The notes under the pieces are model-generated. The model searched no databases. It had not been told where the DNA came from and worked only from the letters and a program-made list of their open reading frames with translations. Below, one piece after another: positions 25,814-39,660 of a stretch of 43,086 nt of DNA (the first letter of the stretch is position 1; every line of letters starts with the position of its first letter). A program made the translations under genes and the position numbers. The stretch spans positions 1 to 43,086 of the IMG/VR virus record IMGVR_UViG_3300046710_000040; one strand, written 5' to 3'. The stretch comes from a virus (lineage: Duplodnaviria; Caudoviricetes).

Positions 25814-25841
25814 ATTATCGCCTATCTCTGTAATTTGTCAA
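25814..25841 (-). promoter_or_regulatory. Sigma70-like promoter upstream of terS
   Basis: Minus strand TTGACA-16 nt-GATAAT. Confidence 0.55.
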
Positions 25842-25846
25842 CTAAA

Positions 25847-25894
25847 TTATAACTGCCGGTACAGCCGACAAGCGGCTGACCTCCTGTGTTAAAC
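25847..25894 (+). other. attC-like site A1 (48 bp, leftmost site of array A)
   Basis: TTATAAC-TGCCG-GTACAGCCG-ACAAG-CGGCTGAC-CTCCTGT-GTTAAAC; one extra base in the left arm. Confidence 0.75.
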
Positions 25895-26006
25895 TACTCT
25901 GCCAAGGCATCGGCAATTGAAATGAGACAACCATCACAGAGTTTTTCAGTGTCGTGTTTTGTCTGACAGCCGGAAACTTCGGCCCTCTTCACTTGGGTGT
26001 GGAAAG

Positions 26007-27335
26007 TCATTTAATCTTACCTGAGTTAACGAACTCAATCAGTGTGGAAATGTCTACACCGTAACTCACAGTTTCAGTGTCATCGGTAGCACCAGTTGTC
26101 CGGGCAAAAGTACAATTATCAAATGCCCTTGCCTTGAAAGGTTTCTTCTTATGATACAGCTGATGAGTGCCTTTGGTGAACAGTAACTTAAAGCGTAGCA
26201 CTTCAAACGAATAGCCTTCGCCAGAGTCATAAACTCTACGGATGACGCTGTTTAAGCCCTCGGTAAAGGCGTTGGTAAACTTGTAATCCCAGTACGTGAA
26301 TATCTCATTCGACCAATTGGAAAAGGCTGTGAAGATGTCCTTGAAATACTTACGAACATATTCAGGAATGGAGTTATTCCAGGCATCGTACAGGTATATG
26401 GCCTCTTCCTTGGTTTCTGCCAGCCAGATATCGAGAAACCGTTCCTTGGCATCGTACACATGTTCCATTTCAGGCCACAACCTGAACCAGCTTTGCAACG
26501 TGGCTTCCTTGAATGGGTCAAGGTCTATGTTGCGGCTCATTAGCGTAAATCTGTCACTGAAGAGCATTGCACGTTGTCTGCCTGTGGTGTCCCTGCGTAA
26601 TTGCTTCCGGTACGCCTCAATGGAGTTCTGTACCATTCTGACGATATGGAACCGATCTATTACAATGATAGCCTTGGGAAAGACGAGACGAGCCGCATCA
26701 CGGTATGTAGGCCACATGTCCATGCAGATGACTTCAACGGCAGAAGCATCAAGCGTATGGAAGTATTTGATGACGGTTGGCTTGTCTCTATCCCGTAGAA
26801 ATCCGATGAGCTTGCCGCCCTCAATATTGGTGACAACACAGCGGTACTTATCACGTTTCTTTTTGCCAAGGCAGATCTCGTCAATACCAAGCACCCTGGG
26901 TGTGACCATCGGCATTGCCTTCTCTTCCCTGTGGGACATATCGAGGAAGATGTTACGAACAGTGTTGATGTTGCAGCCGACGCTATGGGCCACAACATCA
27001 AATTTATGGACAATGCTTTGGTTGGCAATCCAATCGACCAGCCGGGTTGTCATATCCCGCCTTTCGTCAATGCCAATCATACGTTCAAAGAATATGGCTT
27101 CGCATTCCGAGCACTTAAAACGTCGGTGCTTAACGCAAATCTTTACGCATTTGCCTGTGTTTATGTGGTCAAAGTACCAATGGTCTCTTGCATCATGCCT
27201 CTTGAACGTAGCACTGAAACTGCCACATTTGACACAGCGCATCGGTAAGTGTTGGTACTCAGCTTTTACGGCAATATGTTCATCAAGTTCAGCTGAACTG
27301 GTTACTGTAAAGTTTGGCAGGTTGATCTCGATCAT
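26007..27335 (-). CDS. ISL3-family transposase
   Basis: N-terminal zinc finger CVKC...CSEC; LGIDE, CMDMW, DRFHIV, TNAFTEGLNSVIR. Confidence 0.95.
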   Translation of the reverse strand: MIEINLPNFTVTSSAELDEHIAVKAEYQHLPMRCVKCGSFSATFKRHDARDHWYFDHINTGKCVKICVKHRRFKCSECEAIFFERMIGIDERRDMTTRLVDWIANQSIVHKFDVVAHSVGCNINTVRNIFLDMSHREEKAMPMVTPRVLGIDEICLGKKKRDKYRCVVTNIEGGKLIGFLRDRDKPTVIKYFHTLDASAVEVICMDMWPTYRDAARLVFPKAIIVIDRFHIVRMVQNSIEAYRKQLRRDTTGRQRAMLFSDRFTLMSRNIDLDPFKEATLQSWFRLWPEMEHVYDAKERFLDIWLAETKEEAIYLYDAWNNSIPEYVRKYFKDIFTAFSNWSNEIFTYWDYKFTNAFTEGLNSVIRRVYDSGEGYSFEVLRFKLLFTKGTHQLYHKKKPFKARAFDNCTFARTTGATDDTETVSYGVDISTLIEFVNSGKIK

Positions 27336-27351
27336 GGAGTCTCCGTCATCA

Positions 27352-28080
27352 TTAATAGCCGATTGCTATGGCTTCGCAGAGAATGCCACAATCACTGGCA
27401 ATAGGCAATTCATGCCGACCAGCGGTAGGATCAAGTTCGTCAAGGTAGACGCCCTTTATACACGAAGCACCGATAACTCTCTCCAGTCTGGCCCTTGCCG
27501 CAAACTCCTCCGGAAAGTCAATGCGGTTTTTGTTGAAGTAGCCCATTCCGCCACGGACACACATGATGCAGTTGTTGTTGTGATAGCCAAGTTCATACAT
27601 TACGGGGCGCTTTATGCCGCTTGCAGCCAATACCTCATGAGCCTGCACTTTGCTCATTTTCTTCTCAACCAGTGGGAACAGATGTTGCTGATTTGGACAA
27701 CTAAGGCAAATGCCCTCACAGCGAGACTTTTCGCCGTAATCCATTCCCCACACATAACGGAGCTGAACATCAATAGGCTGCTCATATTCCCATTGTTTAC
27801 GAACATCCCGCTTGAGGTATTTGGTGCAAGGAGAAAAGCCTCTACCAGTGATGTAACCCTTACCACCAGCAGACAAACAAGCAGTTTCAACGTTTTTCAA
27901 TGGGGATTGAAGTACCTCAATCTCTTTGCCAAACCATTGTTCACAGTCCTTTACAAACCTCATTGTGTCGGGATGCTGATCTTCAATATGTGTGTAGATA
28001 ATGCGGTCAATCTCGTTGATAGCCAACTTTGTTGCTACGGCACTGGAAACACCAGCTGAGAACCACGATACAGTTAGCAT
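27352..28080 (-). CDS. PAPS-reductase / adenine-nucleotide alpha-hydrolase family protein (IS passenger)
   Basis: SWFSAGVSS PP-loop-like motif, PCTKYLK, YELGYHNNNCIMCVRGG. Start moved to MLTVSW (GGAGG RBS). Confidence 0.8.
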   Translation of the reverse strand: MLTVSWFSAGVSSAVATKLAINEIDRIIYTHIEDQHPDTMRFVKDCEQWFGKEIEVLQSPLKNVETACLSAGGKGYITGRGFSPCTKYLKRDVRKQWEYEQPIDVQLRYVWGMDYGEKSRCEGICLSCPNQQHLFPLVEKKMSKVQAHEVLAASGIKRPVMYELGYHNNNCIMCVRGGMGYFNKNRIDFPEEFAARARLERVIGASCIKGVYLDELDPTAGRHELPIASDCGILCEAIAIGY

Positions 28081-28470
28081 ATAGAACCTCCATTCATAGG
28101 AGTACAATACCATGGAATGCGTATCAATTCAACACCCAAATAACAACTGTCCATTATTAACCGACTATGGCCCTTCCACACTCAAATACATAGGGCCGAA
28201 ACTTCCTTGAGTGTTGTCCGTAACTTCTCGTTTTCCTGGACTTTGGCCTTGTAGCTATTGCCACGGTCTTTCACCTGCACCTTGAGACAACTCACATCGA
28301 GACGGAGTTTTTCAATCTCTGCGACTGAGCGGCGCAAGACTTCCTTTTGCTCTATTTTGAGTTGACGGTTCAGACCCACGCAGTCAGCCTCAATGTCTCG
28401 CCAATCGTCCAACCAGCCTTTCAAATTAGTTACTATGTCGGTAATTTCGCTCATTGATTTTCCTTTCGTA

Positions 28471-28530
28471 GTTTAACCAGCGTTCCGACCCGACCAAGAA
28501 GCCGGACGGGTCAAACGCCAGCCGTTAAGC
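28471..28530 (+). other. attC-like site A2
   Basis: GTTTAAC-CAGC-GTTCCGACCCG...CGGGTCAAAC-GCCAGCC-GTTAAGC. Confidence 0.85.
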
Positions 28531-28932
28531 GTATCTCTGTTTCCATCCACAAACCGGATCAGGAAGAATCCAGAAATGCCGCATGTTGGCCACGTTGACA
28601 ATCTGACTGTCTTCAGGAAGCACTTCGACGGCATAACTTTCCCCACGGCCGATTTGACGCTTCACGGACATGAGTTCGTCCCAGGTAAGATTTTCTTCCC
28701 ACTTGCCGAACTGATCCATTGACGTTCGATTGACCGACACCCTGAAGATCCCACCCCCTTCGTCAAACACCTGGACCAGAAACCGAGAAGACAACCATGC
28801 TTCAATCATGGAATCTACGCGGCCAGTTTCAGGCCATTTGTCCCGCGGAACCTGGAACAGAACAGAAGAACGTTTCGCATTTTGCTTTTCCAGTTCCCGC
28901 CGCTGATGATTTAACACGCTTTTTCTTTTCAC
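28525..28932 (-). CDS. Conserved hypothetical phage protein (cassette 2)
   Basis: LTWDELMSVKRQIG...AVEVLP...IVNVANMRHFW; TAA stop inside the R' box of A2. Confidence 0.75.
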   Translation of the reverse strand: MKRKSVLNHQRRELEKQNAKRSSVLFQVPRDKWPETGRVDSMIEAWLSSRFLVQVFDEGGGIFRVSVNRTSMDQFGKWEENLTWDELMSVKRQIGRGESYAVEVLPEDSQIVNVANMRHFWILPDPVCGWKQRYA

Positions 28933-29495
28933 TGGCTTCTCTCTTTTTTAAGCAATCTCACAACAGCGTCGAGAACGTCAGCCACATAATGAGCAGGTAC
29001 ATTGCTACCTTTGGCCCGAGCTTCGTTGAGAACGGCAAAACCGTCAAAAAGCACTTCCGGCATTTGCGACACGAAAGAAACGGTCCTGGTAGAAGTGTTT
29101 TTCTGATGTTCACGGAGCCGAACCGTTTCTTCCTGGTCCCGTACCCATTTCATCTGAATGTGAAGGTCCGCTTCATCCTGTTCAAGCCCCATACTGTCCA
29201 CAATCCTGAACTGGACTTGATGCCAGAGTGAACAATCACAACAGCCATGCCCGAGCTTCATCCCTTCCAGCTGAACCCATTCACCACTTCCCACCTTTGC
29301 CGCTTCAGCCCCTTCCGATGTTTCGAAAGTAGCACCGCCAAGCTTCAACGCTTCATTGCATTCAGTACAACAACAGATACCATCCCCGCCATGTCTATTC
29401 ATCGTTCCCCCCTTACAAGCACATTGATTTATCGCTTTTGAGCAAACACCACATAAATTTCCAGCTTCAACGTTCTCCTCTTGCACCACCCGCAC
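28929..29495 (-). CDS. Cys-rich hypothetical protein (cassette 2; start uncertain)
   Basis: GCCDCSLWH motif; overlaps the start of the next gene. Confidence 0.5.
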   Translation of the reverse strand: MRVVQEENVEAGNLCGVCSKAINQCACKGGTMNRHGGDGICCCTECNEALKLGGATFETSEGAEAAKVGSGEWVQLEGMKLGHGCCDCSLWHQVQFRIVDSMGLEQDEADLHIQMKWVRDQEETVRLREHQKNTSTRTVSFVSQMPEVLFDGFAVLNEARAKGSNVPAHYVADVLDAVVRLLKKERSQ

Positions 29496-29602
29496 ATTTG
29501 CACATATACACCGTTCCCGGATGCAGCAGCTTTGACGGCTTCACGCTCGATAAACTGCCTGTTTGCCTGTTCCTCAATCTGGTTCCAGTTTAATGACGAC
29601 AT
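29429..29602 (-). CDS. Small hypothetical protein (cassette 2)
   Basis: AAGGAG RBS before MSSLNW. Confidence 0.4.
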   Translation of the reverse strand: MSSLNWNQIEEQANRQFIEREAVKAAASGNGVYVQMCGWCKRRTLKLEIYVVFAQKR

Positions 29603-29624
29603 CTGGCTTACTCCTTGCATTTCT

Positions 29625-29683
29625 GCTTTTACATCGGGTTATCCAGTTATCGCTGCCGATCGGCTGTATAATCATTGTTAAAC
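29625..29683 (+). other. Degenerate attC-like site A3
   Basis: R'' position reads GCTTTTAC (AAC lost); imperfect stem TTATCCAG...CTGTATAA; intact R' GTTAAAC. Confidence 0.5.
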
Positions 29684-29687
29684 ATCT

Positions 29688-30545
29688 CTATGCCGTGTAC
29701 TGGCTGAATCTGCTTTTTGTCCAGATACGGGGCTGATTTCCCCATCTCGACAGTCTGTTATTTTGTCTGTTCTTCACGAACGGCTGAACGTGTGTATTGA
29801 TGTTGAGCCGGTGCAGATAGTCCAGCCGGTAAAGATCCTGCTTTGGTGTCGTTTCGTGGCCTGTCAGAACGTAGAAACCTATCCTTGACCGTTTCACCGG
29901 AAACCCTGCATCCCTCAAGAGCCGGATTCCCCGCTTGACAGATGGCATCAGATCCATGCTATCCCATGCAAAACGCAGATACGGCGGGGCGAGTTGTGCC
30001 AACAGTTCCGCTTTCTCTTCGTTCAACAGCCGGATATCAAGCCCCTGATTGAAGTCTACCCGCAGTTTGCGGATGATCATTTCCTGTAATTTTGCTTTCC
30101 ACAGGGGCGAACCTAGAAAATTGTTATCCAGCAGGGTTACATCTTTGTGCCTCACAAACTCATCCAGTGGCGACCACTCAGAAACCCCGCCCTCTTTTGC
30201 CGGTACGATGCAGAATGAGCAATCACGGAAGCATCCCCGCGAAGTGAAACCCATGCTGTAGTCAATCCCGTACAGTGTGTAATCAGGGCAGATATGCTCA
30301 ATCTCAGGCGGCAAAACAACCGAGTAATCACCTGTACCGCACCCGCCAATAACTCCACCCAATGCCCGTTGAATCTTCCTTGCTTGCGGCATGTTCTTAG
30401 AGAAAACAACGGAGATAAAGACCTTATCCGCAGGAGCGCAGGAGTTAAGCACGACCTCTGCCCCTTGCGCTTTCCAGTGCGCTGACATTTTCATCAGAGC
30501 TAGATTCGGAGTGTTTCCGTCTATGTCAATCAGGTTGATTTTCAC
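29688..30545 (-). CDS. Radical SAM protein (cassette 3)
   Basis: SRGCFRDCSFC CxxxCxxC motif; PNLALMKMSA, LLDNNFL, DFNQGLDIRLL. GTG start after GAGGGG RBS. Confidence 0.85.
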   Translation of the reverse strand: MKINLIDIDGNTPNLALMKMSAHWKAQGAEVVLNSCAPADKVFISVVFSKNMPQARKIQRALGGVIGGCGTGDYSVVLPPEIEHICPDYTLYGIDYSMGFTSRGCFRDCSFCIVPAKEGGVSEWSPLDEFVRHKDVTLLDNNFLGSPLWKAKLQEMIIRKLRVDFNQGLDIRLLNEEKAELLAQLAPPYLRFAWDSMDLMPSVKRGIRLLRDAGFPVKRSRIGFYVLTGHETTPKQDLYRLDYLHRLNINTHVQPFVKNRQNNRLSRWGNQPRIWTKSRFSQYTA

Positions 30546-30559
30546 GATTCCCCTCCGAT

Positions 30560-30613
30560 GTATAACCATCGCATCCAGCGGATTAATCCCCGCTGATGCT
30601 CAAGCCGTTATAT
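30560..30613 (+). other. attC-like site A4
   Basis: GTATAAC-CATC-GCATCCAGCGG...CCGCTGATGC-TCAAGCC-GTTATAT; extra C in the left arm. Confidence 0.9.
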
Positions 30614-31198
30614 GCTTGCCCGTAATTGCTGCACCCATTCTGTCCGACTGTTGGTGCGCTCGACTTCTTTCGCATTCCCTTCTGTGTGGTACTTTATGTC
30701 TCGGGCAGCACTCGATACCGCTTCCACGTAGTACACCTTTGCCGGCTTAGCTTGTGCTTCGGTCAGCGATCTCTCTGAGTAGTCAACGCTGTTCTTGCTC
30801 ACGTCGATTTGTTGGAGCATGAAATCCTTCAACCCTTGGTGGTCTTTCGTTGGAGGAGTCCATGCGCGAACTTGCGCGGCCATCTCTTCAAGACGGCTGT
30901 TCTCGGCCAGAGCCTTTTCAAGATATTTCCGGCTTCGCTCAATATCCTCGGCCTTTGCTGCTTCCCCAAAAGTCGTTCTTTCTTCGATGCTCATTGCTTT
31001 GAGTTTTACCAGTTCTTCACGCGCCGAAATAAGCCGTTTTGCGTTGTAATCTGACGGTTCAAATTTATCAGGAATCGGCGCGTCGTTTGGACTGTCGCGC
31101 ATTTCAATAAGTGCCCCAAAAGCACGAGCGCACCCCATGATAAATTCCGGGAAAGTTTCGCCTGACTCCATCAATTTAGCTGTATATCCTGTTGGCAT
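30608..31198 (-). CDS. Conserved hypothetical phage protein (cassette 4)
   Basis: MPTGYTA...CARAFGALIEMRD; TAA stop inside R'. Confidence 0.75.
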   Translation of the reverse strand: MPTGYTAKLMESGETFPEFIMGCARAFGALIEMRDSPNDAPIPDKFEPSDYNAKRLISAREELVKLKAMSIEERTTFGEAAKAEDIERSRKYLEKALAENSRLEEMAAQVRAWTPPTKDHQGLKDFMLQQIDVSKNSVDYSERSLTEAQAKPAKVYYVEAVSSAARDIKYHTEGNAKEVERTNSRTEWVQQLRASI

Positions 31199-31225
31199 GC
31201 TGATCTCCTTTTATTGCACCAACGC

Positions 31226-31285
31226 ATATAACTAGACGCTGGTGCTGTCTGCGCTGCGCTTGCAGCACAGCTCAAGCCGTTATCT
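31226..31285 (+). other. attC-like site A5
   Basis: ATATAAC-TAGAC-GCTGGTGCTG...CAGCACAGC-TCAAGCC-GTTATCT. Confidence 0.9.
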
Positions 31286-31522
31286 CCAACGCTTAATAGC
31301 CTGGATATCCTCTAAAATAGACCGGCACGTTTGGCATGTAACGCGCCCCTGACGCTCTTCCCCGCTGTGGTATCCGTCGTCGCCCTCAAGCTGTATGCCA
31401 CAAACTGTCCGAATACACGGGCCAGCAGATGTTATTGCGTGCCACTCATCCGAATCGACTAGATGCCCCTCGAAATGTTTATCGTCTGGGTTGGTTGCCT
31501 CAATTCGCACTATTTTTGCCAT
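31280..31522 (-). CDS. Small putative Zn-binding protein (cassette 5)
   Basis: WH...TVCG...VTCQTC; TAA stop inside R'. Confidence 0.65.
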   Translation of the reverse strand: MAKIVRIEATNPDDKHFEGHLVDSDEWHAITSAGPCIRTVCGIQLEGDDGYHSGEERQGRVTCQTCRSILEDIQAIKRWR

Positions 31523-31536
31523 AAATTACCCCCTGG

Positions 31537-31605
31537 AGATAACCAGGACGCCGGACACCGACCGCCAAACACCCGGCGGACGGGTCAGCGCCATGGCCGT
31601 TATAA
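31537..31605 (+). other. attC-like site A6
   Basis: AGATAAC-CAGGA-CGCCGGACACCG...CGGGTCAGCG-CCATGGCC-GTTATAA. Confidence 0.85.
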
Positions 31606-31607
31606 TG

Positions 31608-31790
31608 CTAGTCGATTACCGGCAATCCAGCAATAAACCTGTCGTAGTCCCATGAATAATAGGCATCCTGTTCCGACATAGGCACCCCCTCAATTAAAGG
31701 GCATGTTTGACCTCTCAGCCAATGCCGAAACGGCTCACGTTGCTCTATCGGCAGATCCTTGATTCTAGGCCAACTTTGTTTTTTAGGCAT
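31608..31790 (-). CDS. Small hypothetical protein (cassette 6)
   Basis: MPKKQSWP...FRHWLRGQTCP...AYYSWDYDRF; GGAGG RBS. Confidence 0.65.
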   Translation of the reverse strand: MPKKQSWPRIKDLPIEQREPFRHWLRGQTCPLIEGVPMSEQDAYYSWDYDRFIAGLPVID

Positions 31791-31816
31791 AATATTTCCT
31801 CCGTGGCACCGCCGCA

Positions 31817-31878
31817 CTATAACCAGCGGCAGGTGCATGTTTCGCTGCGCTCAAATGCACAGCCTTATGACGTTATAA
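31817..31878 (+). other. attC-like site A7
   Basis: CTATAAC-CAGCG-GCAGGTGCAT...ATGCACAGC-CTTATGAC-GTTATAA. Confidence 0.85.
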
Positions 31879-31918
31879 TGCTAGTAGTTGCTGCTGTGCT
31901 TGATCGTTAAATTACTCT
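31872..31918 (+). repeat. 47-bp direct repeat copy 1 (R' box plus attC half-site)
   Basis: GTTATAATGCTAGTAGTTGCTGCTGTGCTTGATCGTTAAATTACTCT is identical to 36152-36198. Confidence 0.95.
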
Positions 31919-32181
31919 GGCCGCTTCATCCCTTTAACGTTGCCGAGTTTTCCATTCGCAGTCTGAAGATTGTACCTTGCAGATTCGCAATTCTGGTTTG
32001 CTCGTTCCATCAAATGAGCGTGAGCTTGATCCCATGTGTCGTGATAAGTTTCGTGCTGTGACGTTTTCGCGCTTCTTCGTCCGTTGATCCACAATGAAGA
32101 ATCTGATTCGCGCTCAACTTCTACCGGAGTTATTTTTGTTACGACTCCCCATGAAGTTCGTTCCGTTCTGAATTTAATCAT
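31912..32181 (-). CDS. Hypothetical protein (cassette 7)
   Basis: AAGGGG RBS; fills the space between the half-site and A8. Confidence 0.7.
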   Translation of the reverse strand: MIKFRTERTSWGVVTKITPVEVERESDSSLWINGRRSAKTSQHETYHDTWDQAHAHLMERANQNCESARYNLQTANGKLGNVKGMKRPE

Positions 32182-32205
32182 CTGTTGCCCCTTTCTAAAT
32201 TCGTA

Positions 32206-32255
32206 AGTTAACCAAACACATCAGCGGTCAAGCCGCTGTGTTCAAGCCGTTATAG
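32206..32255 (+). other. attC-like site A8 (50 bp)
   Basis: AGTTAAC-CAAAC-ACATCAGCGG-TCAAG-CCGCTGTGT-TCAAGCC-GTTATAG. Confidence 0.85.
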
Positions 32256-32302
32256 TGATAATTCTTTAAATATCCTTGCCGCTTCATCTTTACCAAAATG
32301 GT

Positions 32303-32989
32303 TTATTGAATATTTTTTCTAGACCTTGCACCTGCGACACCTATGCATTTAGATATTGATGGTCTGCTTTTGATTAATGAATGCCCGAGATCGTCTATAT
32401 CCCAACCACAATTAATTCTTTGGTGCAAAGTCCCAACGGATATCCCTAATTTTTCGGATAACTGAGATAGTGACTCATATCCTACACCGTCATAAGATAT
32501 TTTCTTATTTGTGCTTTTATTTCTTTGTTGCTGTTTTTGTGTAGCCCATCGGCAGTTTTCCGGTTCATAATTGCCGTCATTATTTTTTCTATCTATGCTG
32601 TGCCTTGAAGATGGTTTCTTGCCCATATCGGATAAAAACACTCTAAAATCTTCCCATTCCTTACAAACTGTTATCCCTCTCCCTCCATAGCGGTTGTATT
32701 TTTTAGATTTTTTATTATAGCATCTAGTAAACATTCCCGCCCACGATCTGTATTCGGTGGTATTACAAGCAGAATGCTTAGTGCTTGATTCGGAGACTCG
32801 TTCTTTTTGTAAACAACCGCAGCTCTTAGTGGATCTGCTTTGTAAGTGATCGATCCTAATTATTTTAGTTTTGCCACATACGCATTTACATAAAAACCTG
32901 CGCAATCCATTCTTGTAATTAGAGGATTGTTCGATTATTTCAAGCCTACCAAAAAACATTCCACATTTGATTTCTATACTTTTATGCAT
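32303..32989 (-). CDS. HNH homing-endonuclease-like protein
   Basis: CKCVCG...KSCGC, YGGRGITVCKEW, SIDRKNNDGNYEPENCRWAT; AT-rich. Confidence 0.85.
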   Translation of the reverse strand: MHKSIEIKCGMFFGRLEIIEQSSNYKNGLRRFLCKCVCGKTKIIRIDHLQSRSTKSCGCLQKERVSESSTKHSACNTTEYRSWAGMFTRCYNKKSKKYNRYGGRGITVCKEWEDFRVFLSDMGKKPSSRHSIDRKNNDGNYEPENCRWATQKQQQRNKSTNKKISYDGVGYESLSQLSEKLGISVGTLHQRINCGWDIDDLGHSLIKSRPSISKCIGVAGARSRKNIQ

Positions 32990-32999
32990 AGCATACCCT

Positions 33000-33302
33000 T
33001 TATAACCAAAATTTATCACCTTTTTCATATAACCATAATTCATTGAATTTAGCAATAAGTTTTTCTGGGTCAAGTTCCCACCATTTCCAAAACTCTCTAC
33101 CGCTTGCGTGACGTTGGGCATGGTGCCAGACACACAGCGGTATCATACGACTATCGCAACATTTTCCGCCCATAGTGCCGTGACCTTCAAGTTGTTCATG
33201 GTGTCCTACCGCAGATTGGTCACAAATAACGCAAGGCAAACGACCGACAAAATTCCGGTACTTCCGGCTATAGATTGCTTTTGTTTTTGGCTGAGGTTTC
33301 AT
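33000..33302 (-). CDS. DUF968-like Zn/HNH-type protein
   Basis: KYRNFVGRLPCVIC...HH...IPLCVWHHAQRH. Confidence 0.7.
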   Translation of the reverse strand: MKPQPKTKAIYSRKYRNFVGRLPCVICDQSAVGHHEQLEGHGTMGGKCCDSRMIPLCVWHHAQRHASGREFWKWWELDPEKLIAKFNELWLYEKGDKFWL

Positions 33303-34633
33303 AACTGTTCAAACCGTTGGAACATCCCCATCCATGCTACGGGTATGCTTATGTTCCGTTCGCCGTTTCTCTGCTTCTCAATGATGATTTCCGCTTGTGC
33401 CTGATGTTCTCGGTAAATATGATTGCAGTCATCTTCCGCGCGATCCCGACACTTCGGGCAATAGGCGGCAGGCCGGAAGGGGAAAATGATCACGTCTGCA
33501 TCCTGCTCGATTTCTCCTGAGTCTCTGAGGTCCGACATAAGGGGCCGCTTGTCTGGTCGTGAATCCACAGTGCGGTTCAACTGAGACAGAAGGATTATTG
33601 CGATATCCAGTTCACGCGCTATGATCTTCAGCCCCCTGGATATCTCACCCAAACCCTGCACCCTGTTATCCTTTGCTGGTATCGACATAAGCTGAAGGTA
33701 ATCAATCACGGCAATATCCAGCCCCTTCCGTTTTTGCCGCTTGATCTTCGCTTTCACGTCCCGCAGTGTGACGCCTGGGGTGTCGTCAATAAAAAGGTTC
33801 CATCCGGTTATATCAGCGCATGTGTTTGTGCATTTTATCCATTCAGAATCTTCCAGCCTACCGTTGCGGATATGATGGAGCTTGATATTCCCCCTGTCCG
33901 CAAAGAATCGATCCATGCAATCTTCTTTCGACATTTCAAGAGAAAACAACATCCCATGTTTACCGGACACACAAGCGGCCCTGAGAATGTTTGACGCCAT
34001 TACTGATTTACCCATTGAAGGACGCCCCGCGATAATTACCAATTCCCCTCGGTGAATTCCGTTAGTAACAGAATCAAGGCCATCAATACCCCATGACATG
34101 CCCTGCAAAGCTCCTTTCTGCTGATACCTGCCCTTGAGTCTCTTGACAGCTTCTTTCACCAACTGAGGGGTGGCTACTGGCTCATTATGCTGTTGCTTGA
34201 ACATCCCTGTCAGGTTGCTTTCCATCTTTTCCGCTATTTCTTCGGAAGTAGAACCGCTCTCAATCATAGAGAGAGTCTGTTGCGCTTGAGCCTGGAATCT
34301 CCGCTTTGTAGCCATTTCGAGAACTATTTTGCAGTAATAAGCCACGTTCGCAGAAGTGGGAACATAATCAGCCAGCATCAGCAGGTAAGCGGCCCCGCCT
34401 ACCTCTTCAAGATATCCCTGCTCTTTCAGTAATGCCGACATAGTTACGAAGTCGCAAGGCTCATTGCGGTCATTCAGCACAAGCATAGCCTGAAGTATTT
34501 TTCTGTGTGCCTCTCGGTAAAAATCTTCAATCGTGAGCGTTGACATAATCCGGTCAAGGGAGGTCTGATCAATAAAGACACTGCCGAGTATCGACATTTC
34601 AGAATCTATGTTTTGAGGAGGTAAATTATTCAT
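33299..34633 (-). CDS. dnaB: Replicative DNA helicase
   Basis: PPQNIDSE, AGRPSMGKS Walker A, IDYLQLM, SQLNR, DLRDSGEIEQDAD, KQRNG. Confidence 0.95.
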   Translation of the reverse strand: MNNLPPQNIDSEMSILGSVFIDQTSLDRIMSTLTIEDFYREAHRKILQAMLVLNDRNEPCDFVTMSALLKEQGYLEEVGGAAYLLMLADYVPTSANVAYYCKIVLEMATKRRFQAQAQQTLSMIESGSTSEEIAEKMESNLTGMFKQQHNEPVATPQLVKEAVKRLKGRYQQKGALQGMSWGIDGLDSVTNGIHRGELVIIAGRPSMGKSVMASNILRAACVSGKHGMLFSLEMSKEDCMDRFFADRGNIKLHHIRNGRLEDSEWIKCTNTCADITGWNLFIDDTPGVTLRDVKAKIKRQKRKGLDIAVIDYLQLMSIPAKDNRVQGLGEISRGLKIIARELDIAIILLSQLNRTVDSRPDKRPLMSDLRDSGEIEQDADVIIFPFRPAAYCPKCRDRAEDDCNHIYREHQAQAEIIIEKQRNGERNISIPVAWMGMFQRFEQL

Positions 34634-35369
34634 ATTGAGCAAGTTTCCTTTTCAGTGCGTCGGATGCCTGAAAAACAGGAGGATCGGACTTTATCAAACA
34701 CAATGCTGATTCATCTTCCCACCGCCGCGCCGTAAGCCACCCTTGCGCCATTTTAGGGGTTTTGCCATCGGATATGAGCGTCGGACGCCTTAACGCTTCC
34801 GACTTGGCAGCGGTCACAATCTTTTCGACTTCTGCCATTGTCAGCTTTTCAATATCTAGCCATGCGTCTGCTGCTTCAGCCCGTCCTGATTTGTAAGAGA
34901 ACGCTTCCCAAAACTTCAGGAATGTTTCGAGTCTCTTGCCAGTCAGTTTCCTTTTTTTCTTCGTGATAATTGTGTCAGCTTCATCGGCAGATGAAGAAGG
35001 TATTTCTAAAGGATTAGGATTAGGATTTATAGTAGGTGTTTTCTCCCTGTCGCCTACCTGTCGGCTACCTGTTTTACTGCTGTTTTCTTGCCTTTCTAAG
35101 TTATTGAAAATTAGCCTTATTTCCTGTCGGCTACCTGTTTCCTTCCTGTCGGGCAGATGTTTTCCATCTGTTTTCAACTCCGAGGTAAAACGCCGTACTT
35201 TATCCCTACTCCAAGTCCATATTCTTGAGTAATCGCTAATGGATTTTTCCGCCTCTTCGTCAAGGTCTTTCGCAAAGGAAAAAGCCGCCTCCAAAATTGT
35301 ATAAGGACGTTCTCGTGGTAGAAAAGATGCCAGTCGCTTGTCAAGCGGTATCCAATTCCCGTCTTTCAA
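34626..35369 (-). CDS. Putative replication initiator / replisome organiser
   Basis: Upstream of dnaB; N-terminal HTH-like WTWSRDKVRRF; C-terminal FLKFWEAF...AQGWLTARRWEDE. Confidence 0.7.
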   Translation of the reverse strand: MKDGNWIPLDKRLASFLPRERPYTILEAAFSFAKDLDEEAEKSISDYSRIWTWSRDKVRRFTSELKTDGKHLPDRKETGSRQEIRLIFNNLERQENSSKTGSRQVGDREKTPTINPNPNPLEIPSSSADEADTIITKKKRKLTGKRLETFLKFWEAFSYKSGRAEAADAWLDIEKLTMAEVEKIVTAAKSEALRRPTLISDGKTPKMAQGWLTARRWEDESALCLIKSDPPVFQASDALKRKLAQYE

Positions 35370-35370
35370 G

Positions 35371-35496
35371 TTATGCCCCTGGTATGATCGGCGTACCGCA
35401 TACAGGACAGTAAAGAGCGTTTACAGGAACCATAAACTCAGCGCCAGTTTCAGGATCGATATACACACCAAAATATTTGACTTCACAGCATTGCAT
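35371..35496 (-). CDS. Small Cys-rich peptide
   Basis: MQCCE...YCPVCGTP; start uncertain. Confidence 0.35.
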   Translation of the reverse strand: MQCCEVKYFGVYIDPETGAEFMVPVNALYCPVCGTPIIPGA

Positions 35497-35759
35497 GTTG
35501 GCGCCCGTAGAAAACAAAAACCCCCTTTGAAGGCGGCATCCTTCGCGGGGGGAGTTTGCTGAATCAGACGCTTTCGCGCCATCATCAAAGCAGATAATCA
35601 CGTTATGCCGAACGTGTTCAATATTAAATTGTAAGTTGCGGCGGCAGGTTGCTCCCTTAAACGGTCTGCATGTAAACACTGCCGCCAATGTTGTCATTAT
35701 CGCGTCCGACTGGATTCCGCCCTATGCGGTGCCGGCCCCCTGGTGGTATTTTCGCTACC

Positions 35760-36098
35760 TTATTCCAGCAATTCAGACCTGTCAACTACATTTTCTGCCT
35801 GTTCCGCATGGTACGTCCTCATGATCATATTCCACGCCGCTTCATAACCATGCCGACAACCTGTCTCTTCGTCCACTGAGAGAGGATCAATCTGACAAGC
35901 CACTGTATGCCTTAACGAAGCAGAGAAAAACCGTTGTGAGCCATTATCGAAAGGTTTCAGACAATTAAAACGTTCATATTTTTTGCATCCCGCTTCAGCG
36001 ACCTTAATCAGACCTTTCAGACAAACCAGAGGAAAGCTATGCCAGTCGATTTTACCCTGATCGTATTTTAAACCGCTGTCGTCTTTATTATCTGGCAT
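35760..36098 (-). CDS. DUF5664 (dATP/dGTP diphosphohydrolase N-terminal-like) protein
   Basis: GLKYDQGK...GCKKY...SLRH...DEETGCRHGYEAAWN. Confidence 0.75.
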   Translation of the reverse strand: MPDNKDDSGLKYDQGKIDWHSFPLVCLKGLIKVAEAGCKKYERFNCLKPFDNGSQRFFSASLRHTVACQIDPLSVDEETGCRHGYEAAWNMIMRTYHAEQAENVVDRSELLE

Positions 36099-36100
36099 TC

Positions 36101-36158
36101 TTATAACTCCCGTTGGAACTGACTGCGCTTCGCTTCGCAGTTCAACTCCTTGTTATAA
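36101..36158 (+). other. attC-like site B1 (leftmost site of array B)
   Basis: TTATAAC-TCCC-GTTGGAACTG...CAGTTCAAC-TCCTT-GTTATAA. Confidence 0.85.
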
Positions 36159-36198
36159 TGCTAGTAGTTGCTGCTGTGCTTGATCGTTAAATTACTCT
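36152..36198 (+). repeat. 47-bp direct repeat copy 2
   Basis: Identical to 31872-31918. Confidence 0.95.
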
Positions 36199-36207
36199 CG
36201 GAGGAGT

Positions 36208-36615
36208 TTACTCGTCCCGCCACTTCTTTTCTAACAGCTCGTTTATTTCATCCATCGAGTTATCCATGAGCCAGAAAACATCGACGCCTTTGTAAATGAT
36301 CTCCTCGACCTCAAAATCCTCCTCCTCGTCCTCTGCAACTTGATCGTATGTAGCAAGGAAGATATCATTTTTAATAGGGTAGTTTTCTCCCTGAACTCCG
36401 GTAATGATCCAGTCACCAGGGCAAACCTCTTGCGCACCGCCCTTGCCTTCAAGCGTGATGATTGTGCCGTGGATTATCGCCGGTTGCCCGCATTTCTCAC
36501 AAGCAGGTGGGTCGAGGTCTTGCGGGATGTAAACCCGTTTGACGTTCGAGTGGTCACCATCTTTATTCCACTGAGTTGCTTCGATTGGGATTGGTTTCTT
36601 GACAAATTTTGCCAT
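36208..36615 (-). CDS. PGDYG-like conserved phage protein (cassette 8)
   Basis: KKPIPIEATQW...TLEG...PGDWIITGVQGENYPIKNDIFLATY. Confidence 0.75.
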   Translation of the reverse strand: MAKFVKKPIPIEATQWNKDGDHSNVKRVYIPQDLDPPACEKCGQPAIIHGTIITLEGKGGAQEVCPGDWIITGVQGENYPIKNDIFLATYDQVAEDEEEDFEVEEIIYKGVDVFWLMDNSMDEINELLEKKWRDE

Positions 36616-36619
36616 GTTC

Positions 36620-36874
36620 TTATCTCCTTTGGTTTAGTTTCAGCCATAGCATCATGGCGAAGTTTGCAACGTCAACGAGCGCCTTTTGTGGCACATTGTG
36701 TCCGAGTGTTACTATCTGTGCCGCCTTAGTCAGCAGCTTGCCAGGGATGTCATAATTCTGGAAACCTCCGCAGTCCCAGCCGTGGAAGCCCTGTTTATGT
36801 TTCTGAATCATTCTGGCTTTCATTGCATCTGCGAACCTGTCAACAGCATTGCAGTAGTCGGCTTTTTCTGACAT
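36620..36874 (-). CDS. Conserved hypothetical phage protein (cassette 8)
   Basis: VDRFADAMKARM...GW...VDVANFAMMLW. Confidence 0.7.
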   Translation of the reverse strand: MSEKADYCNAVDRFADAMKARMIQKHKQGFHGWDCGGFQNYDIPGKLLTKAAQIVTLGHNVPQKALVDVANFAMMLWLKLNQRR

Positions 36875-36891
36875 GGCACCCACCTTTCGTA

Positions 36892-36950
36892 ATCTAACAA
36901 CGCCTCGCAGCGGGCGATAAGGCCCGCCGCTGAAGTCGCAGCCGTTATAC
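36892..36950 (+). other. attC-like site B2
   Basis: ATCTAAC-AACGC-CTCGCAGCGG...CCGCTGAAG-TCGCAGCC-GTTATAC. Confidence 0.85.
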
Positions 36951-37250
36951 AGCTATGCAGCCTTTCTGCCGAATTGAATCAATCATCCATTCGTACCCAT
37001 AGAATCCCTTGGTTGCCCTTCTGATCTTTGCAGCCTCTTTCCCGTCAACGGGGCGAACGGACACAGAAGCGCCCCATCCATCGCCGAAATTGTAGTAGTA
37101 GCTCTTTGCACTCAAAATTTCTTGTGCCTTCGCTTCGTTCGCCTTTCCCTTGCCAAAGTCAACGATTTTGGCATATAGGTTGTTCGCTCCTGTCCATTTT
37201 CCGTCCCAAGATCCTGCGTTTGGCATCGAAAGTTCAAAACATACTTTCAT
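36945..37250 (-). CDS. Conserved hypothetical phage protein (cassette 9)
   Basis: FELSMPNAGSWDGKW...FGDGWGASV...GFYGYEWMIDSI; AGGAGG RBS; TAA stop in R'. Confidence 0.75.
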   Translation of the reverse strand: MKVCFELSMPNAGSWDGKWTGANNLYAKIVDFGKGKANEAKAQEILSAKSYYYNFGDGWGASVSVRPVDGKEAAKIRRATKGFYGYEWMIDSIRQKGCIAV

Positions 37251-37268
37251 CACTATCCTCCTTACGCT

Positions 37269-37331
37269 GTATAACCAACGCATAGACGCTGGTTTTGCTA
37301 CGCTTCACAGGTCATGCTTGACCCGTTATCT
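37269..37331 (+). other. attC-like site B3
   Basis: GTATAAC-CAAC-GCATAGACGCTG...CAGGTCATGC-TTGACCC-GTTATCT; two extra bases in the left arm. Confidence 0.9.
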
Positions 37332-37515
37332 ACCACCCGACCAACCGCCATTGTGTGTCGGTCAGACCATCGTGATAGTGTTGTAGCAGATACCCTCTGC
37401 CAAGGTCAGGGCAATCGACTTTGAGTTGCCCGTTTTGCCTGTAAATTTCCACCGGAGTCCATTCACCATCTGTTTCACCGCAGGAGACTTCATATTTTCC
37501 GGGTTTTGTTGGCAT
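37330..37515 (-). CDS. Small hypothetical protein (cassette 10)
   Basis: MPTKPGKYEV...; stop abuts R'. Confidence 0.6.
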   Translation of the reverse strand: MPTKPGKYEVSCGETDGEWTPVEIYRQNGQLKVDCPDLGRGYLLQHYHDGLTDTQWRLVGW

Positions 37516-37607
37516 AAATTACCTAAAGTTCTGCAGGAGTTGAAAGCCGCTATCCATGCGGGTTGACGTGCCATTAACGGTGGAAATTGCGTGATTTCTG
37601 CAGGAGC

Positions 37608-37656
37608 AGATAACCATCTTATTCGACCGGGCAAGCCGGTCAAACGGTCGTTATGC
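37608..37656 (+). other. attC-like site B4 (49 bp)
   Basis: AGATAAC-CATCT-TATTCGACCGG-GCAAG-CCGGTCAAA-CGGTC-GTTATGC. Confidence 0.75.
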
Positions 37657-38124
37657 CTTAATACCAAGAGACTCTTTCAGCCGAGTCACAGCCATATCCA
37701 TGTTTTGCTTGATAACCTGCTGAGTCACCAGTGAAGTGAAGTCAGCTTTGAACTTTGCTACCTCTTTTTGCACAACCTCCGTCACAACAGATGTAAACGA
37801 GTTTCTATCGCTGGAGTAATTGGCCTGCTTGAATGTGCATTGTGCCTGCACAAAGCCTGCAATTCTCTCGCGGATACTCGCCTCTTTGCCGCTCCGACCG
37901 TAAGCATCTGTATCGGTAAACTTGGTATCCATCGTCATAGTTATTGCATCCTTTGTCACCTGAGTAACGACTTCAACCAAGTTCTTCTCAAGCATCTCTG
38001 TCAATGCCGCTTTTGCCTGAGTTCGCATTGAAGTTAAGAGTGCTTGCGATACCTGCTCAATAACCTCGTCGCGGATTGTTGTTTCATCTCCAAGAATATC
38101 AGCGGTGTTAATAGTGATCTGCAT
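37651..38124 (-). CDS. Helical hypothetical protein (cassette 11)
   Basis: AGGAGG RBS before MQITINT; TAA stop in R'. Confidence 0.7.
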   Translation of the reverse strand: MQITINTADILGDETTIRDEVIEQVSQALLTSMRTQAKAALTEMLEKNLVEVVTQVTKDAITMTMDTKFTDTDAYGRSGKEASIRERIAGFVQAQCTFKQANYSSDRNSFTSVVTEVVQKEVAKFKADFTSLVTQQVIKQNMDMAVTRLKESLGIKA

Positions 38125-38156
38125 TTGCATCCTCCTTTGATTTTGGCAACGAACTG

Positions 38157-38217
38157 GCATAACCAGCACGCTGCACTCTGTTGTCGCTTCGCTCCACAGG
38201 TGAGCTTAGCGTTATAT
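38157..38217 (+). other. attC-like site B5
   Basis: GCATAAC-CAGCAC-GCTGCACTCTG...CAGGTGAGC-TTAGC-GTTATAT; two extra bases in the left arm. Confidence 0.9.
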
Positions 38218-38219
38218 TA

Positions 38220-38468
38220 CTAAACTAACTTTGCTAGTGTTTGACTGCAAATAGACCATTCTTCGTCGAGTTCGAGTTCCTTGGCGTACATTCGGTTTTC
38301 GCGAATAGCCTGTATTTTTGTAAGAGCATCGATTGCAATTTCTATCTGCTTGAGTCTTGCATTGTGCTCGTTTTGAGCGTGGCAAATATCGGAGTACAAA
38401 ACATATTTGCCAGTATCATCTTGGCACATTTCGCCTTCGTCTAAATCATGTCTCAGCATTTGTCCCAC
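38220..38468 (-). CDS. Hypothetical protein (cassette 12)
   Basis: Coupled ORF with MCQDDTGKYVLYSD motif. Confidence 0.55.
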   Translation of the reverse strand: MGQMLRHDLDEGEMCQDDTGKYVLYSDICHAQNEHNARLKQIEIAIDALTKIQAIRENRMYAKELELDEEWSICSQTLAKLV

Positions 38469-38692
38469 TCCTTGTTGAATGCGTAAATTGCCAGTCGTGG
38501 AGTATCACCAAATCCGGCAATGCCGACTTGCAAATTTTCACCGTAGAGGACACACCATTGATTGCCATCCTTGGAAAGCGTAGGTTTAAGCATAGCAAAA
38601 AGATTCATCTCTTCTGATTCAATCGCCGCACTTAATCTGCTTTGTCCCACCTTATCAGCCCACATTTGCTCACGTTCTGATGTTGTATCCAT
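38453..38692 (-). CDS. Conserved hypothetical phage protein (cassette 12)
   Basis: KDGNQWCVLYGENLQVGIAGFGDTP. Confidence 0.7.
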   Translation of the reverse strand: MDTTSEREQMWADKVGQSRLSAAIESEEMNLFAMLKPTLSKDGNQWCVLYGENLQVGIAGFGDTPRLAIYAFNKEWDKC

Positions 38693-38717
38693 ATCTCCCC
38701 CTTTTTATTTATCTCAT

Positions 38718-38987
38718 CTACGGTCTCACCGAATCCACGTACTCCATGATCTCTGTGGCAGCGTCATAGACTGTTCCTGGTACAAGATAGGTGTCTTCGT
38801 CAAGTACCCAAGGGCAAACGAGGTCACATAGTTTAGCCAGCCGCCCAAGAGATTCGGCATACTGTTTTTCCAAAGACAGCCATTCTTCCTGAGTTTGAGG
38901 TTGTGATTGCGGCGGTATCGTGTCAAAGGTTTTCCCGCATTTGGTACATTCCTTCACCCCGACCAGTTCATGTTTGCAATTTTCCAC
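38718..38987 (-). CDS. Hypothetical protein (cassette 12)
   Basis: AAGGAG RBS, GTG start, CKH...CTKCG. Confidence 0.55.
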   Translation of the reverse strand: MENCKHELVGVKECTKCGKTFDTIPPQSQPQTQEEWLSLEKQYAESLGRLAKLCDLVCPWVLDEDTYLVPGTVYDAATEIMEYVDSVRP

Positions 38988-39018
38988 GATGTTCTCCTTG
39001 TTGTTGCAGTCCTACGAA

Positions 39019-39074
39019 ATATAACCAAACGCTCGAAGCGGATGCTTCGCACCGTTCAGCTAAAGCCGTTATTT
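39019..39074 (+). other. attC-like site B6 (last site)
   Basis: ATATAAC-CAAAC-GCTCGAAGCGG...CCGTTCAGC-TAAAGCC-GTTATTT; extra C at position 4 of L'' as in canonical attC. Confidence 0.9.
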
Positions 39075-39335
39075 GTTCCGAACCGTGTCTTTAAACAGAA
39101 ACGCCCGCGCCCTGTCTTCCGTCGCTTCACGATCCATCCGGTCCTTCATCTGTTGCCTGACGTTCGCCTGATCCTGGTTGACGGCCTGAGCCGCTTCCAT
39201 GTCGGACTTTCCGACAAAGCCCAGGACCAGGACAAACAGCGCAAACAGTATGCAACAATACACGACTTGCCCCTTCGTCATTCGTTTGCAGTTCATAGCT
39301 TCCCCCCCGTTCAGGTAATGTCGCCGGTTTTGCAC
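39069..39335 (-). CDS. Small membrane protein
   Basis: One TM segment; TAA stop in the R' box of B6; true start probably MNCKR. Confidence 0.6.
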   Translation of the reverse strand: MQNRRHYLNGGEAMNCKRMTKGQVVYCCILFALFVLVLGFVGKSDMEAAQAVNQDQANVRQQMKDRMDREATEDRARAFLFKDTVRNK

Positions 39336-39508
39336 TTCAGCTTTTTCGCAAGAGCTTCACCAATACGCAGATTGATATTGACGCTCTTTCCAGCAAACAA
39401 CTGAGTAATGCGACGTTCAGACGCATACCCGGCAGCTTGTGCAAGATCCATAAGCGACACTTCGGAATTCATAAAACAAGCCTTCAATTTATCTGGATCA
39501 ATTTTCAT
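39311..39508 (-). CDS. Cro-like HTH regulator, first gene of the leftward arm
   Basis: 65 aa; SLMDLAQAAGYASERRITQL...ALAKKLKCKTGDI; AGGAGG RBS. Confidence 0.7.
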   Translation of the reverse strand: MKIDPDKLKACFMNSEVSLMDLAQAAGYASERRITQLFAGKSVNINLRIGEALAKKLKCKTGDIT

Positions 39509-39660
39509 TGTGTTACCTCCTTTCTAAAGATGATTGACTTCTATCAAAACAAAATATTTCTGTCAAGCGAAAAATTACATGAAAAATTTACTTGACAATA
39601 TTTCCGAGTATTGATAAACGTTGACCATCATTTATTTCGATCACGAAAAGGAGAAGCGTT
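39509..39660. promoter_or_regulatory. Divergent early promoter region
   Basis: AT-rich; back-to-back TTGACA hexamers (minus strand 39561-39566, plus strand 39592-39597) at the strand switch. Confidence 0.7.

Follow-up and report, generated by a model that had tools for sequence, protein, structure and literature searches.

Integrons are textbook bacterial devices whose gene cassettes face the Pc promoter, and a phage genome in which such cassettes appear to be built the other way around raises the question of whether these are integron cassettes at all, what would move them, and why they are reversed. We address this question for virus record IMGVR_UViG_3300046710_000040, analysed over its whole length of 43,086 bases (hereafter the window), which is a complete record with direct terminal repeats and encodes capsid, portal, terminase, DnaB, RecT, and RusA. 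The original prediction, made from the letters alone, placed an array of reversed attC cassettes at 25894..39508; the first site in fact begins at 25847. The cassettes are very probably true integron cassettes of a reversed, phage-specific design, in which the attC site lies 5' of a gene on the bottom strand, with the integron integrase IntI likely provided in trans.

The attC sites and their polarity

A detector that tests for either polarity yielded 13 attC-like sites spanning 25847-39074; all are short (48–69 nt) and consist of the inverse core AAC and the core GTT around an imperfect hairpin with L boxes. Ten of the 13 score at least 17, a value reached nowhere else in the window and by four matches in 258,500 shuffled bases, and the same detector called the controls R100 aadA1, phage TJE1, and one chromosomal array canonical. 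All 13 sites have, on the plus strand, an unpaired base, variable in identity, at left-arm position 4, that is, on the L'' arm. Because by the canonical rule the extra base sits in this arm, the plus strand is the attC top strand, as predicted; the left spacer is also the shorter one in 11 of 13 sites, the other two being 6/5. A covariance model built from 32 canonical sites, the check proposed for the strand assignment, agrees: it matched 11 of the 13 sites on the plus strand (15–35.8 bits) and only three of those 11 on the minus strand, each with a lower score than on the plus, while the sites at 31537 and 31817 were unmatched at E ≤ 10. The polarity of the training sites was taken from the attC detector and agreed with gene strand every time.

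The bottom strand of the window sites is purine-rich (top strand G 173, C 219). The right spacer measures 7–8 nt in 9 of 13 sites, where attC central spacers are usually 5–6 nt (PMC5027507), and a distal T at position 11 is found in 1 of 13. The sites are as follows.

25847..25894, top strand plus: attC 0, resident, own cassette not found; an insertion point, where run X4 keeps the site and its left context and diverges at 25891
28471..28530, top strand plus: attC 1, whose R' gives the TAA (28525) of a DUF7694 gene
30560..30613, top strand plus: attC 2, whose R' gives the TAA at 30608
31226..31285, top strand plus: attC 3, whose R' gives the TAA at 31280
31537-31605, top strand plus: attC 4, in the 80-aa gene's cassette
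31817-31878, top strand plus: attC 5, in the 60-aa gene's cassette
32206-32255, top strand plus: attC 6, in the 89-aa gene's cassette
36101..36158, top strand plus: attC 7, probably resident; a sequence resembling the downstream gene's ribosome-binding site (RBS) lies in the spacer, and the start is 3 nt past R''
36892-36950, top strand plus: attC 8, in the two-gene cassette
37269-37331, top strand plus: attC 9, in the 101-aa gene's cassette
37608-37656, top strand plus: attC 10, in the 61-aa gene's cassette
38157-38217, top strand plus: attC 11, in the 157-aa gene's cassette
39019-39074, top strand plus: attC 12, in the three-gene cassette

Cassette boundaries and gene orientation

All genes flanking the 13 sites lie on the minus strand, that is, the attC bottom strand, whereas the canonical open reading frame (ORF) lies on the top strand upstream of its attC; the array thus carries a variant of this feature. 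Six genes end in a TAA located one base from the R' G (28525, 30608, 31280, 36945, 37651, and 39069), exactly at the six coordinates at which stops facing the R' GTTA had been predicted. Most other stops are also close to R', with a TAG 5–9 nt from the R' G at four sites and the remaining three stops 40–56 nt away. Starts lie 3–33 nt beyond R'' at 11 of 13 sites and 93 nt beyond it at one, with none called at 25847. These distances place the RBS within the cassette just past R'', and inside attC only at 36101; the predicted clustering of starts at the R'' end therefore holds, but an RBS within the site itself is the exception.

The boundaries emerge from the cores. Comparing the left-end core of each interval with its right-end R'' gave at least 8 of 10 matching bases in 8 of 12 intervals, whereas other pairings reached this value in 20 of 132 cases (permutation p = 5e-6). 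In three of the four weak intervals, a 9-of-11 core lies 6–22 nt beyond the gene stop (29677, 31906, and 36186); these cores were picked from a 4.5-kb scan, and their support is their position, not their score. Among the weak intervals, only the replication block lacks such a core, and no left core was found for attC 0 or attC 7. The core matches define 11 cassettes and two resident sites (25847 and 36101). The claim that every cassette ORF is on the minus strand holds for all flanking genes, but two of the blocks concerned, 28525-29602 and the replication block 32303-36098, look resident and not like cassette cargo. The cassettes are listed below.

25888..28523, minus: cassette A, a single interrupted ORF, of which 28182-28454 and a 3' remnant that ends at 25894 are left; 411 bp without the inserted element; cores 10/10
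29677..30606, minus: radical SAM cassette, gene 29688-30545 (phrog_9298), own site attC 2
30607..31278, minus: 196-aa gene cassette, gene 30608-31198 (phrog_8905), own site attC 3, 5' of the gene
31279..31598, minus: 80-aa gene cassette, gene 31280-31522 (phrog_15583), own site attC 4; other neighbourhoods in X2 and X7
31599..31871, minus: 60-aa gene cassette, gene 31608-31790, own site attC 5
31906..32248, minus: 89-aa gene cassette, gene 31912-32181, own site attC 6; core 31906 matches R'' at 9/11
36186..36943, minus: two-gene cassette, genes 36620-36874 and 36208-36615, own site attC 8; breaks at 36950 in X3-X6
36944..37324, minus: 101-aa gene cassette, gene 36945-37250, own site attC 9; cores 10/10; other left neighbours in X2 and X7
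37325..37649, minus: 61-aa gene cassette, gene 37330-37515, own site attC 10
37650..38210, minus: 157-aa gene cassette, gene 37651-38124, own site attC 11
38211..39067, minus: three-gene cassette, genes 38718-38987, 38453-38692, and 38220-38459, own site attC 12; cores 9/10; break at 39072 in X3

Exchange of cassettes among related phages

Matching cores cannot say which site travels with a gene, and we therefore compared relatives. L137 shares the 157-aa cassette (homology 37649-38215), with an identical 5' site and a different 3' site; L046/G013 shares the 196-aa cassette, again with the same 5' site and a different 3' site. The site 5' of the gene thus travels with it in 2 of 2 close homologues. 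In contigs of seven runs, homology to the window breaks -4 to +6 nt from the R' G at at least 10 of the 13 sites, the counts of breaks and pieces being lower bounds from the matches listed; the break at 32249 comes only from a run that may be the source of the window. Among the pieces listed, 31597-31876 (in a 1771-nt X2 contig), 37322-37654 (in X4, where both flanks differ from the window), and 31278-31595 each comprise a complete cassette and, of the two sites, just the right-hand one, and none consists of a gene with only its left-hand site. One contig contains the reshuffled joint 31595-36941. Recombination thus takes place at the R' G, and each cassette travels whole, accompanied by its own attC. 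These comparisons establish the polarity, where the cassettes begin and end, and that related phages exchange them at the R' G; together with the mapping of published phage PH101 sites described below, they bear out the predicted mirror-image class, in which the recombining bottom strand is the mRNA-like strand.

Arrays are patchily distributed. Among the terminase relatives, only G002 (three sites) and G003 (one site) have them out of eight whole or near-whole contigs scanned. Ten contigs carrying the 196-aa gene include just two, G013 and G014, that have attC sites, so cargo genes occur outside cassettes too; likewise, no attC site lies near the 135-aa homologues in L139 and L140 or the 157-aa homologue in L138.

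Could the hairpins instead serve as RNA signals, be it for termination or for processing, or as patches of homology, with exchange driven by RecT-type recombination? The phage does encode RecT and an exonuclease-like protein, and the hairpins lie between cistrons, where they may also act on mRNA. Nevertheless, this explanation is very improbable: the breaks coincide at a single base although the site bodies are dissimilar, each cassette has matching cores, an Rfam search gave no matches, and terminator-like matches are at chance level (13 found versus 14.6 expected).

Integron integrases and attI-like sites of phages

No integron integrase was found in the window with TIGR02249, with Pfam (67 ORFs), or with a profile of phage IntIs, and a six-frame search with such a profile returned no remnant. 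The window array, having at least two attC sites and no integron integrase nearby, is by definition a CALIN (cluster of attC sites without an integron integrase), and the window lacks the intI gene of a complete integron, which relatives have. The circular phage contig G013, which carries the 196-aa cassette, encodes an IntI above the TIGR02249 cut-off immediately behind the array; the nearest named relative of this IntI is from Geobacter. All four phage IntIs tested pass this cut-off, and profile searches returned many more IntIs.

Polarity separates viral from chromosomal arrays. Among 40 viral intI loci, 24 have sites, of which 33 are inverted, 4 canonical, and 22 uncalled; among 40 chromosomal loci, 28 have sites, of which 45 are canonical, 4 inverted, and 17 uncalled. 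The chromosomal loci come from the phylum of a Syntrophaceae metagenome-assembled genome (MAG) and were taken from 217 matches for their long flanks. The Fisher p of 5e-15 is overstated because neither the sites of one locus nor related phages are independent of each other. A further 79 metagenome loci (12 inverted, 21 canonical, and 18 uncalled sites), being of mixed nature, were excluded from the count. At sites upstream of viral intI, the intI gene lies on the attC bottom strand in 51 of 51 cases, as in bacterial integrons and never on the top strand as in inverted-integrase integrons, and 32 of the 35 genes called there are inverted. Among called cassette genes, 34 of 37 in viral loci run in the direction of intI versus 15 of 49 in genomes, and intI is within 30 nt of the next same-strand gene in 17 of 37 viral versus 2 of 36 genome cases. 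Viral arrays located downstream of intI are canonical, again co-directional (L222, L225, and Rctr41k). In L358 (KX853513.1, 4680-10101), as in L222 and L225, a viral intI precedes a canonical same-strand array, an alternative layout in which intI and cassettes again stay co-directional.

One branch of the IntI tree (SH-aLRT 100) holds 24 rows, 21 viral, three from metagenomes, and none from genomes, in a quick version of the tree with a sample biased by the query. A single origin of inverted arrays does not follow, because they also occur on other branches. The 24-row branch keeps the catalytic residues, K209, and W219, and differs in the pocket for the distal extrahelical T, whose residue roles are described in PMC3053210: H240 is kept in 3 of 24 rows versus 37 of 40 genome rows. 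A distal T occurs in 8 of 36 phage-branch sites versus 43 of 66 genome sites, and a long right spacer in 22 of 36 versus 16 of 66, both tendencies being shared by the window. A changed pocket would also fit a phage enzyme that uses the opposite strand, leaving the cassettes functionally canonical with only the extra bases mirrored. This is scarcely credible in view of the natural crossovers at the right-hand R' G, the canonical geometry of attI, and the PH101 recombination assay (PMC9892861).

Between the last cassette and intI, 37 of 42 loci contain an attI-like motif, the pattern having been chosen by eye, such that this is not a blind count. The corresponding feature of the window is:

29646-29683, plus: attI-like site, diverged, crossover G at 29677, followed by a 57-aa gene where relatives have intI

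A profile of 19 attI-like sites has its best window match at 29646-29679, on the expected strand, with 15.5 bits, compared with shuffle maxima of up to 13.7 and 23-45 bits for all training sites bar one. The core at 29677 matches the R'' of attC 2 at 9 of 11 positions. We infer that 29646-29683 is a diverged attI whose intI was lost. The same profile gave no standout match in G014, G002, G003, G007, or L137.

Two further observations concern the cargo of IntI-bearing relatives. G013 contains a 224-bp non-coding cassette beside attI (G013:C1:35024-35247 and 1-123), apparently with attI behind it at the start of the contig and with its own attC behind it at the contig's end, which suggests a tandem copy or an excised circle in the assembly. 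DNA methyltransferase genes are a recurrent inverted-cassette cargo in L144, L193, L198, and G013.

Mixing of phage and host cassettes

G013 includes one canonical, AT-rich cassette (35% GC versus 54%) antisense to its neighbours, and in three runs a top-strand RBS and ATG directly follow site 36950. On the host side, in a chromosomal integron that neighbours trp-like genes, the first position is taken by an inverted two-gene cassette (L332:8545-9640; G228:C3). Its methyltransferase gene is frameshifted and finds a phage cassette gene as its best non-self match among the loci, while a search with the 77-aa protein encoded there found only itself. The arrangement supports a probable capture of a phage-type cassette by a host integron. 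This is the one clear case among 49 called sites in the 40 chromosomal loci, the other three inverted calls looking like artefacts; the proposal that host integrons would take up such cassettes antisense is thus partly supported.

The further proposal, that potentially toxic phage genes are stored in host arrays, fared worse. In the suggested search for homologous antisense cassettes, none of 17 window proteins found a homologue in the 40 chromosomal loci, no cassette cargo matched a toxin family, and the captured methyltransferase is frameshifted. PADLOC gave no match for 14 window cassette proteins, and the atlas matches of the 196-aa protein are unnamed viral clusters. A main role of the array as a silent archive of phage genes, possibly toxic ones, kept in host integrons and retrieved by phages would account for the first-position cassette of L332, but we regard it as unlikely: a single clear case stands among the called sites, the loci searched, which may not be those of the host, lack the window cargo, and the phrog_8905 family occurs in 1 of 401 genomes, where no attC is called.

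Operon context and direction of replication

The runs that hold pieces of the window are peat metagenomes, one of which may be the source run, and terminase matches are scattered over MAGs from several phyla. Around and between the cassettes, the following features were recognised.

32303..36098, minus: resident block between arrays, encoding HNH endonuclease, DUF968, DnaB, replication initiator, and dATP/dGTP diphosphohydrolase; end cores match at 7/10 only
35046-35171, within the replication initiator gene: four iteron-like repeats, a probable origin
39069..39508, minus: resident head of the predicted leftward operon, with 65-aa and 88-aa genes, the latter stopping in the R' of attC 12
39509-39660, both strands: divergent intergenic region adjoining the predicted operon head
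25814..25841, minus: sigma70-like promoter match (11/12), adjoining R'' of attC 0 and lying upstream of the small terminase gene; a consensus match only

A promoter scan placed no site at 39.5 kb, the presumed transcript start, and matches to the promoter consensus across the window are at chance level. In 39509-39660, each strand has a TTGACA hexamer with a weak -10-like hexamer 17 nt on, and no repressor or integrase family match was found near this region.

The position of the probable origin bears on another account of the inversion, namely that it was selected for shuffling because genes oriented along replication would place the bottom (coding) strand on the lagging template, where attC would fold and recombine more. 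Excision is indeed higher with the bottom strand on the lagging template (Loot 2017, PMC5371416), and this effect could coexist with the explanation that we prefer. As the reason for the design we find it rather doubtful: the probable origin lies between two arrays of one polarity, and some viral arrays, those downstream of intI, are canonical. To the left and right of the repeats, GC skew is equal (-0.128 and -0.129); it shifts only at the transcription switch and so does not give the fork direction.

Two mobile or repeated features were found within the array.

25981..28198, minus: ISL3 element, with transposase 26007-27335, PAPS-reductase-like passenger 27352-28080, 33-nt inverted ends, and an 8-bp target duplication
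31872..31905, identical at 36152-36185, plus: 34-bp relic, an apparent cassette start fused to an attC right arm

The ISL3 element splits cassette A, whose empty allele, free of the insertion sequence, is found in run X5 (joint 25972-28198). Its passenger has a weak match to SspD (E = 2.6e-6). The 34-bp relic precedes the true core in two different cassettes. Viral contigs searched for exact copies of a repeated 23-nt stretch returned nothing. The cassettes starting at 25888, 31906, and 36186 (R'' ends 28471, 32206, and 36892) have similar termini and unrelated genes, as if different ORFs had been loaded into one shell, which may bear on cassette genesis.

A model for the reversed cassettes

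The array works like integron cassettes and departs from them in the canonical gene-orientation feature. We propose that the cassettes are moved by an integron integrase supplied in trans, which is likely because the window phage encodes none; this phage probably lost its intI and would use the IntI of the host or of a co-infecting phage. By analogy with the inverted PH101 sites, for which recombination has been published, the window sites would be recombined by IntI as a folded bottom strand. The reversed design may have arisen when phages set an intI-attI platform into an operon so that it faced the same way as the operon: with the attI geometry, the top strand then opposes transcription, and therefore only bottom-strand genes are read from an upstream promoter. 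The predicted operon would be transcribed from a putative upstream phage promoter, making Pc unnecessary. New cassettes would enter at the promoter-distal end, either at the attI-like site (29677) or at a resident attC (25888, 36152), and, with its stop in R' and its RBS shortly after R'', each unit would remain a plug-in cistron.

Several points weigh against this model. The window sites depart from the IntI1 type in right spacer and distal T, neither IntI nor a remnant is encoded, and the attI-like match scores close to the shuffled maxima. In some contigs, a site body of the window is joined to another payload (31227, 32209, 38151, and 38159), so bodies are not tied to one gene; the X1 contig that leaves at 38159 is seen in part only. 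The viral polarity count relies on a home-made gene caller that left 22 of 59 viral sites uncalled. Finally, P12002L attC1, inverted in our mapping, failed to recombine with IntI1 (PMC9892861).

More broadly, and with roughly even but slightly unfavourable prospects, phages may run an integron system of their own, comprising an IntI clade, an attI motif, an altered extrahelical-base pocket, and a reversed cassette pool, in which polarity would serve as a firewall and phages devoid of IntI would borrow the enzyme. If so, promoterless host cassettes, many of them for anti-phage defence, would land antisense and silent in a phage operon, just as phage cassettes would be silent in host arrays; host integron arrays have been described as stores of anti-phage genes (10.1101/2024.07.02.601686). 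Phages such as that of the window could then shuffle accessory genes with a borrowed enzyme, and a mirror-image cassette pool with phage integrases would constitute a site-specific route to mosaicism beside homologous and illegitimate recombination. A gene can thus carry attC at either end, which also constrains models of how cassettes are made, a process called largely unknown (PMC5371416). Mining tools that assume top-strand genes would pair such genes with the wrong site.

Comparison with known systems

Phage CALINs were reported by Qi et al. 2023, who found that IntI1 recombined five phage sites, the bottom strand better than the top (PMC9892861). They resemble the window array as attC clusters in phages without an integrase, although the largest in Table S1 has four sites versus 13 here, and a phage-specific IntI clade and attI motif are not described in the parts of that report available to us. 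Both PH101 sites assayed, attC1 and attC2, were recombined by IntI1, more efficiently on the bottom strand (PMC9892861). When we mapped published sites, 4 of 4 model matches in PH101, both tested sites included, were inverted, as were 5 of 5 in MW202573 and P12002L attC1, whereas TJE1 was canonical; NC_029094.1 (75919-77987) and MW202573.1 (2069-3738) are published phage CALINs inverted relative to their annotated genes. The available main text of PMC9892861 calls PH101 typical and does not mention genes opposite or antisense to attC, so an inverted-site experiment is in print, unremarked in that text. A literature search, subscription journals aside, found no description of reversed phage cassettes or a phage IntI clade.

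Canonical cassettes of the IntI1 and VchIntIA systems share with the window the R''/L''/L'/R' anatomy, the extra bases on L'', the crossover at the R' G, cores complementary within a cassette, and a purine excess on the bottom strand (Nivina 2016, PMC5027507; Larouche and Roy 2011, PMC3053210). Relative to them, in the window the bottom strand carries the gene, attC precedes it on the 5' side, the stop lies in R' and not near R'', the right spacer is longer, the distal T is mostly absent, and the sites are short, with no Pc identified.

Some single cassettes in canonical arrays, such as certain toxin-antitoxin cassettes, are reverse-oriented with their own promoter, and these likewise have their ORF on the bottom strand. 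In the window, by contrast, the reversal applies to all cassettes, and most leaders, at 3-33 nt, leave no room for a promoter. The inverted-integrase integrons of the Spirochaetes type resemble phage arrays in that intI and cassette genes run in the same direction, with intI flipped relative to attC and the cassettes canonical (10.1101/2022.02.06.479319, PMC13323075). The phage type achieves this in the opposite manner, keeping the canonical intI-attI-attC geometry and flipping the gene within the cassette.

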